Assembly: GCA_964391975.1 (NCBI GenBank)
Contig: CAYMNZ010000001.1
Span: 262,978-326,977 of the forward strand
Source of the DNA: an uncultured Candidatus Saccharibacteria bacterium
GTDB lineage: Bacteria > Patescibacteriota > Minisyncoccia > Phycocordibacterales > Phycocordibacteraceae
Length of the DNA: 64,000 nt
Reading direction: 5' to 3'
The position numbers were made by a program, and so were the translations under genes. The notes beneath the pieces were generated by a model. The model saw nothing but the letters and a program-made list of their open reading frames with translations, searched no databases and was not told where the DNA came from. Below are positions 22,181-22,561 of this stretch, piece after piece. Every line of letters starts with the position of its first letter. Position 1 is the stretch's first letter.

Positions 22181-22561
22181 ATGAAAAGAGAAGGTCCCTC
22201 TATATCGGAATTTAGTCCTTATCAGGGCGAAGATCCTTTGGATGGACTTTCTCTTACAGCAATTGATCAAGACAGAATTGAACGTAAAGAACCTGTGACC
22301 GTCATCTCGAAACATTTGGTAGGAGAGTGGCCAAGGCAGGAAATGAAAAAAGAGAAACACGAATTTCACGCCGGCGATTATCTAGAGATAACTACAGGAG
22401 GTGAAGGTAAGGGCACGGGCTATTGCCGCCAAGGAGTTCTTATAAGTGCGACTGAAAGCGGTGTAAAAATAGTCGAGGTGATACTAGGCAAACGACGGGT
22501 TGTGCGTGTGGGGGCCACGGGAATCAAGCGAGTTTCGAAGATTGAGAAATTATCAAATTAG
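22181..22561 (+). CDS. hypothetical protein inserted in the atp operon
   Basis: ATG lies 2 nt after the atpG stop and 17 nt before atpD. GC is lower than the flanking atp genes. No homology recognised. Confidence 0.5.

Follow-up and report, generated by a model that had tools for sequence, protein, structure and literature searches.

We analyzed a 64,000-nt stretch of DNA (hereafter the window) from an assembly of an uncultured Candidatus Saccharibacteria bacterium (GCA_964391975.1; contig CAYMNZ010000001.1, positions 262,978 to 326,977 of the forward strand). The window carries an F1Fo ATP synthase operon in which an open reading frame (ORF) of 126 codons, here named ORF126, lies between atpG and atpD, the genes for the gamma and beta subunits (Table 1). 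An earlier examination of this DNA from its letters alone (the sequence-only reading) had placed the ORF 2 nt after the atpG stop codon and 17 nt before atpD in an otherwise canonical operon, and had proposed that it encodes a lineage-specific accessory or regulatory subunit of the ATP synthase or represents a selfish insertion. The coordinates and both spacings, the first consisting of the dinucleotide TT, were confirmed on the sequence, and the ORF list and Pfam matches agree with the canonical order of the remaining genes (atpB-E-F-H-A-G-D-C). As judged from sequence comparison, ORF126 is a real protein-coding gene under purifying but relaxed selection. The interpretation that we favor, with about even confidence, is that it is a clade-restricted, fast-evolving and dispensable passenger of the atp operon whose predicted barrel domain would serve as a binding module.

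Table 1. Features of the ATP synthase operon around ORF126, in window coordinates
Feature	Coordinates	Strand	Evidence and remarks
F1Fo ATP synthase operon atpB-E-F-H-A-G-[ORF126]-D-C	17782..24203	+	ORF list; Pfam matches (gamma, beta, delta, epsilon); a, c, b and alpha from Pfam annotation precomputed for L001, an identical contig
atpG, gamma subunit, 302 aa	21270..22178	+	PF00231, E 1.2e-77; TAA stop at 22176-22178
ORF126, 126 aa	22181..22561	+	ATG at 22181, TAG at 22559-22561
17-nt AT-rich spacer before atpD, ATATAATTTATAAAGCT	22562..22578	+	Homologous to the entire 16-nt atpG-atpD spacer of sister species L009, TTATAATTTATTCACC
atpD, beta subunit, 458 aa	22579..23955	+	PF00006, PF02874, PF22919; ATG at 22579
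atpC, epsilon subunit, 82 aa, beta-sandwich domain only	23955..24203	+	PF02823 only

The ORF126 protein has very few relatives. A word-indexed search of 5.8 billion clustered proteins returned only the protein itself, on 9-18 contigs (one of them 742 kb) that all come from one sampling project, while an exhaustive phmmer (HMMER) search of 1.84 billion representative proteins yielded exactly two homologues: P0002 (123 aa, 45% identity, E 5e-24) and P0003 (128 aa, 34-37% identity, E 9e-7). A profile built from these three members recovered no additional ones, and two metagenome pattern scans gave none among the matches listed, a weaker negative than that of the phmmer scan. ORF126 had no match in Pfam, NCBIfam, PHROGs or PADLOC; for the three members together, Pfam and NCBIfam remained without a match at E<=1-10, as did PADLOC. 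Both homologues are encoded at the same place as ORF126. The gene for P0003 (locus L090) lies between atpG and atpD on contigs of up to 654 kb and starts 2 nt past the atpG stop, and that for P0002 (locus L089) is found on a contig of 940 nt, where it is flanked by the final 35 codons of atpG and the initial 143 codons of atpD and starts 4 nt past the atpG stop. The P0003 locus also occurs on three variant contigs with anomalies, namely a split atpG (L093, 2547-3421), an apparent duplicate of the atpD 5' end (L094, 1642-1821) and an uncalled atpD (L095, 538-1869); that of L094 is a scaffold N-gap with overlapping ends, and those of L093 and L095 probably likewise stem from assembly or frameshift errors.

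Three species retain an open frame of 123-128 codons although their nucleotide identity is down to 46-52%, and identity at codon positions 1, 2 and 3 is 0.57, 0.67 and 0.33 (2>1>3), a codon signature which, together with the three open frames, argues that the gene is real. Because the proportion of synonymous differences (pS, 0.76-0.78) is saturated, above the Jukes-Cantor limit, a formal ratio of non-synonymous to synonymous substitution rates (dN/dS, omega) is not computable, and selection was judged instead from codon-position identity and from the comparison of pS with the proportion of non-synonymous differences (pN, 0.39-0.47). In the three-member alignment 31 columns are invariant. The family nonetheless evolves quickly: its dN is 0.55-0.74, against 0.08 for atpD, 0.13 for atpA and 0.22-0.24 for atpG and atpC, a rate of non-synonymous evolution 3-9 times that of the ATP synthase subunits. 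The genome encoding P0003 illustrates the difference, as its alpha, gamma, beta and epsilon subunits share 82, 72.5, 88 and 72% identity with their counterparts in the window, compared with only ~34% for the ORF products. A spurious frame in a non-coding spacer might likewise lack a database family match and show atypical composition, but this explanation is effectively refuted by the frame kept open in three species, the ordering of codon conservation, pN well below pS, the phmmer match to P0002 and a confident structure prediction.

In base composition ORF126 differs from its surroundings, as the sequence-only reading had claimed. Its guanine-plus-cytosine (GC) content is 0.45, about 10 points below the 0.54-0.56 of atpA, atpG, atpD and atpC, and its GC content at third codon positions (GC3) is 0.38 against 0.51-0.64 in the same four genes and 0.60-0.64 in the flanking ones, the lowest value among the 65 genes of the window. 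The deficit recurs in all three hosts of the family and tracks the GC content of each, a pattern that fits weak constraint under AT-biased mutation or drift better than recent import. Two further window ORFs, at 13511-14077 and 59989-60594, are low in GC (0.39-0.40, window mean 0.52) and are possibly foreign genes or genes under weak constraint. Neither a sigma-70-like promoter nor an intrinsic terminator was found within or beside ORF126 on the + strand, which with the 2-nt stop-to-start spacing bears out the earlier assertion that the ORF is co-transcribed with the atp genes. A Shine-Dalgarno motif precedes none of the atp genes of the window (upstream regions, 17746-24260), the junctions between them measure 2-26 nt or overlap, and the TAA-TT-ATG at the start of ORF126 resembles the tight junctions at atpH (TAA-CT-ATG), atpG and atpC. 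This arrangement suggests Shine-Dalgarno-independent or coupled initiation of the atp genes, and translational coupling of ORF126 to atpG is a reasonable inference from it.

To place ORF126 in its lineage, the window was compared with 80 loci of Paceibacteria/Kaiserbacteria-like Patescibacteria, selected as atpG relatives with one genome per GTDB species. The ORF126 family is encoded in none of these 80 atp loci, sister species L009 included, and in the eleven closest (atpG 66-82% identical) the gap between atpG and atpD is 7-48 nt. The spacer of L009, TTATAATTTATTCACC, corresponds to the window sequence TT plus the ORF plus ATATAATTTATAAAGCT, and this homology defines a clean indel boundary in the ORF-less sister. 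In a neighbor-joining tree built from alpha, gamma and beta with bootstrap support, the window and L009 are sisters at 100%, and the carrier L090 joins them, together with the non-carrier L010, at 70%. Carrier L089, a fragment placed from 178 residues, clusters with L009 (72%). Distances between the ORFs agree with this tree, that between the window and L089 being smaller than that between the window and L090. In the simplest history the ancestor of a small Paceibacteria-like clade acquired the gene once, its descendants inherited it vertically, and it was cleanly lost at least once (in L009 and possibly L010). Clean loss in a descendant implies that ORF126 is dispensable on evolutionary time-scales. 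The ORF is present and syntenic in two other species of the small clade and absent from L009 and the rest of the 80 loci. The sequence-only reading had named absence from close relatives together with a lack of purifying selection as evidence against itself, and here the outcome is mixed: the closest relative found, L009, lacks the ORF, and the carriers show purifying selection.

A patchy distribution, a clean indel boundary, GC and GC3 clearly below those of the flanking genes, and the presence of a PemK toxin in the same position of some relatives could all be read as signs of a recent foreign or selfish insertion, whether a mobile element, a phage-derived gene or a homing-type cassette. We consider this very unlikely. 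ORF126 has no flanking direct or inverted repeats and is single-copy in the window and the loci, and the family libraries reveal no mobility, nuclease, transposase, endonuclease or integrase domain in it. A viral contig scan and tblastn found no homologue in viral contigs, phage records or plasmids, and weak tblastn matches within the window at ~56.8 kb and ~54.1 kb were set aside as off-frame in the rpsM/rpsK region or as short chance matches. Moreover, the orthologues diverged so long ago that synonymous sites are saturated, their relationships match the host tree, and the GC deficit is common to all three hosts. The selfish insertion suggested by the sequence-only reading thus finds no support. 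A role as a toxin-antitoxin or anti-phage defense gene was rejected as well, there being no PADLOC or Pfam match and no partner ORF, since the only neighbors of ORF126 are atpG and atpD.

The junction in which ORF126 resides is a recurrent insertion slot in Paceibacteria. Among the related loci, the atpG-atpD junction exceeds 150 nt in 29 of 74, compared with 13 of 79 for atpA-atpG, 7 of 53 for atpD-atpC and 0 of 36 for atpH-atpA. The inserted genes, confirmed by Pfam and found in loci ranging from L015 to L063 at about 4900-6300 in locus coordinates, are unrelated to one another. They include NUDIX hydrolases (L028, L030, L041, L046, L049), Ham1/ITPase (L018, L029, L039, L041), PemK/MazF-like toxins (L018, L021, L035), a SET domain (L021), a nucleoside-deoxyribosyltransferase-like gene (L057), small transmembrane ORFs (L015, L043, L052, L054, L055, L059) and further genes without an assigned family, and they are generally lower in GC than the surrounding operon. 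Many relatives also have atpG-atpD expansions of 200-500 nt with short unconserved ORFs. As the junction repeatedly holds unrelated genes, the location of a gene between gamma and beta does not count, for this clade, as evidence of ATP synthase function. The enrichment for nucleotide "house-cleaning" enzymes beside the ATP synthase may be meaningful. A NUDIX hydrolase gene also stands directly upstream of the atp operon in the window (16400-16978) and directly downstream of it in L090 (8886-9317), echoing the NUDIX cargo inside the operon of other relatives.

The protein encoded by ORF126 is predicted to be small and cytoplasmic. All members of the family are soluble and without a hydrophobic segment (maximum 19-residue Kyte-Doolittle mean 0.5-1.3; grand average of hydropathy -0.5 to -0.8). 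AlphaFold2, run on the three-sequence alignment, gave a model with a predicted local distance difference test score (pLDDT) of 78.5 and a predicted template modeling score (pTM) of 0.70. The model begins with disorder over residues 1-13 (to about 25), followed by a helix at residues 27-34 and by seven strands over residues 38-120, arranged as a beta-hairpin (38-63) and then a basic SH3-like barrel (67-120). The beta-domain is basic (isoelectric point 9.6-10). In two of the three members the first 36 residues are acidic. Invariant residues cluster at the passage from the helix to strand 1 (D29, I33, R35, E37, V39), at A64-G65-D66 with I70 and T72, and at G85, L87-I88-S89, T91-E92 and G94, and the best-conserved motifs are AGD-x-[VL]-x-I-x-T and G-[IV]-L-I-S-x-T-E-x-G; residues 1-17 are the least conserved part of the protein. 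Foldseek searches of the PDB and BFVD gave best E-values of 0.02-0.07, with no match below 0.01. All top matches were small barrels of the SH3-like class, and they aligned to the last ~60-65 residues of the protein: bL19 and bL19m, the RimP C-domain, the GatD N-domain, NusG KOW, Hfq, NdhS, eL21/eL27 and small phage proteins. These superpose with a probability of 0.9-1.0 and a root-mean-square deviation of 2-4 A over 58-66 columns, with a template modeling score of up to 0.71 on a small target. The suggestion in the sequence-only reading that the C-terminal half forms a small beta-barrel is thus supported by both the AlphaFold model and the Foldseek matches.

Several sources for this barrel were considered and rejected. 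A diverged paralogue of bL19, KOW or Hfq finds no sequence support: in hhalign the best probability was 3.4% (bL19) and uL24 was also negative, and there were no BLASTP or Pfam matches; the window contains no rplS for comparison. Descent from a duplicated N-terminal "crown" domain of atpD or atpA received an hhalign probability below 0.5%, and the atpD 5' duplicate of L094 is the scaffold artefact mentioned above. Sequence-profile matches in the PDB to the Rel TGS region (E 0.07) and AbrB (E 0.5) are insignificant and were treated as noise.

A further explanation concerns the origin of the gene rather than its function, namely that ORF126 is a young gene born in place, de novo or from an expanded spacer, and still weakly functional. 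Such a birth would agree with the extremely narrow family (3 members in >5.8e9 proteins), its fast evolution and low GC3, the lack of detectable homology to any family or to the neighboring atp genes, and the expanded atpG-atpD spacers with short unconserved ORFs in many relatives. The model, by contrast, is a confident, well-packed seven-strand SH3-like structure, and with the 31 invariant columns it suggests a mature domain, which would be explained more easily by extreme divergence from an existing SH3-like protein. We therefore hold birth in place to be rather improbable.

A link to the ATP synthase was sought as well. None of the three family members shows sequence homology to the ATP-synt families of Pfam and NCBIfam, and hhalign of the ORF126 family against alignments of alpha, beta and gamma gave probabilities below 0.5%. 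ORF126 fails the universal presence expected of canonical F1Fo subunits, given its absence from L009 and the 79 other operon-bearing loci. Carrier-specific substitutions in alpha, gamma and beta amounted to 1 column, compared with 0-1 in control pairs, and are not above background. The epsilon subunit is 80-82 aa in all Paceibacteria loci examined and is without the C-terminal helical inhibitory domain; as this holds for carriers and non-carriers alike, there is no linkage to ORF126. Such a short epsilon implies clade-wide loss of epsilon-mediated inhibition.

It is nevertheless conceivable that ORF126 is a supernumerary F1 regulator or assembly factor, an explanation to which we assign a low but appreciable probability. 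Its basic barrel would bind F1 in the gamma/beta region, and the disordered N-terminal segment and short helix would insert in a catalytic or rotor interface, modulating ATP hydrolysis in the manner of the alpha-proteobacterial inhibitor zeta or mitochondrial IF1 in an enzyme whose epsilon is reduced to its beta-sandwich. In each of the three carriers the gene lies exactly between those for gamma and beta, with tight coupling to atpG, and purifying selection retains it. In alpha-proteobacteria a truncated or non-inhibitory epsilon coexists with a supernumerary inhibitor having a disordered N-terminus (PMC9317440), and the order of disordered N-terminus, conserved short helix (D29, I33, R35 and E37 invariant) and globular domain in ORF126 parallels the zeta/IF1 layout described there. 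SH3-like barrels are also known as accessory subunits of bioenergetic complexes, and NdhS is among the fold matches. Against this stand the absence of ORF126 from the sister species and ~70 relatives with an equally short epsilon, the lack of carrier-specific substitutions in alpha, gamma and beta, the variability of the N-terminal residues, the all-beta predicted fold with no Pfam match, and the frequency with which the junction hosts genes unrelated to ATP synthase. In its most specific form, in which ORF126 and its two orthologues are a clade-specific supernumerary subunit or regulator with an SH3-like anchor on F1 and an N-terminal arm replacing the missing epsilon C-terminal domain (CTD), a beta-barrel analogue of zeta/IF1, we consider the idea doubtful. 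The earlier proposal of a lineage-specific accessory or regulatory subunit accordingly survives in that the gene is real and lineage-specific, while the subunit role is weakened by loss in the sister, the lack of co-varying residues, very fast evolution and the promiscuous junction.

Taken together, the data are most consistent with the passenger interpretation, in which a single arrival of ORF126 at the atpG-atpD junction, in the forebear of a small Patescibacteria clade, would have been followed by vertical descent and by clean deletion in at least one descendant. The protein would be made from the atp polycistronic mRNA by termination-reinitiation coupling, so that its expression would follow that of F1. 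The gene would thereby exploit a permissive, strongly expressed junction that holds unrelated cargo in ~40% of related genomes, and its modeled barrel probably binds RNA or an acidic protein surface rather than acting as a stoichiometric ATP synthase subunit. Three points weigh against this interpretation. Retention in one slot beyond synonymous saturation and tight coupling to atpG would be equally expected of a true F1-associated factor. Part of the cargo at the junction (NUDIX, Ham1) is nucleotide-related, so the "passengers" are perhaps not functionally random. Finally, the number of losses is uncertain, as the placement of L089 comes from 178 residues (72%) and the L090 node has 70% support.

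Some features of the surrounding genes were recorded in passing. The delta subunit (atpH, 19316-19684) is 122 aa long and matches positions 57-168 only of the OSCP profile. The region directly before the atp operon (window 13474-17700) holds small ORFs and, among them, five tRNA genes distributed over both strands. The ORF at 17135-17617 encodes a 160-aa protein with a weak DUF948 match, whose C-terminal half is repetitive (EDxxEIQEDVEE repeats) and highly acidic.

If ORF126 is a passenger, it shows that a core conserved operon in the reduced genomes of Patescibacteria tolerates and retains lineage-specific genes at one junction, and it adds an orphan family with a confidently predicted fold. 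The more general observation may be that NUDIX, ITPase, toxin and other genes have repeatedly been inserted at the gamma-beta junction. If ORF126 instead binds F1, it would represent a new type of ATP synthase regulator where epsilon has lost its inhibitory domain, and would bear on the means by which ultra-small bacteria, probably fermentative or symbiotic in lifestyle, prevent the enzyme from running in reverse (hydrolyzing ATP) or exploit its doing so.

Compared with the F1 inhibitors already described, namely zeta (DUF1476), IF1 and the epsilon CTD, ORF126 is similar in that its product is predicted to be small and soluble, starting with a disordered region that leads into a helix and then a globular part, and in that it occurs in a lineage whose epsilon is without inhibitory helices. 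The differences are considerable. The inhibitors are helical, with a four-helix bundle in zeta, one long helix in IF1 and a helical hairpin in the epsilon CTD (PMC9317440), whereas ORF126 is predicted to be all-beta apart from one 8-residue helix, and Pfam gives no family-level match between them. The zeta gene lies outside atp operons and the zeta N-terminus is strictly conserved (PMC9317440), in contrast to a gene inside the operon whose residues 1-17 are variable. An inhibitor of the zeta/IF1 type would be expected to bind F1 at the alphaDP/betaDP/gamma interface and to inhibit ATP hydrolysis; for ORF126, the co-variation test in alpha, gamma and beta, which is indirect, was negative.

Other extra genes of ATP synthase operons offer a second comparison. 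The genes atpI and atpZ precede atpB, and their small membrane-protein products have been linked to the Fo c-ring or to Mg2+ handling. Like ORF126, the genes of the atpI and atpZ/atpR type are non-catalytic additions co-transcribed with the F1Fo structural genes; their products are membrane proteins, whereas that of ORF126 is predicted to be soluble, is encoded between gamma and beta and has no family match. The other cargo of the atpG-atpD junction shares with ORF126 its location, its orientation and a GC content below that of the operon. These genes are unrelated to ORF126 and to each other in sequence and fold, and most have recognizable enzymatic or toxin domains, which ORF126 does not.

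The closest structural likeness is to the SH3-like small barrels (bL19, NusG/uL24 KOW, Sm/Hfq, the RimP C-domain, NdhS and the PsaE type), on which the predicted five-stranded C-terminal barrel of ORF126 superposes at E-values short of significance. RNA-binding barrels of this class are basic, as is that of ORF126. ORF126 departs from these families in its additional disordered N-terminal tail, helix and beta-hairpin and in an atp-operon context unlike that of any of them, and sequence homology to them was not detected. In the literature library searched, no paper describes a bacterial gene located between atpG and atpD, and none describes additional genes in the atp operons of the candidate phyla radiation. 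Both the SH3-like small-barrel fold class and the phenomenon of a lineage-specific small gene riding a conserved operon are already familiar; the three-member orphan sequence family is new, and ORF126 is its first described member.
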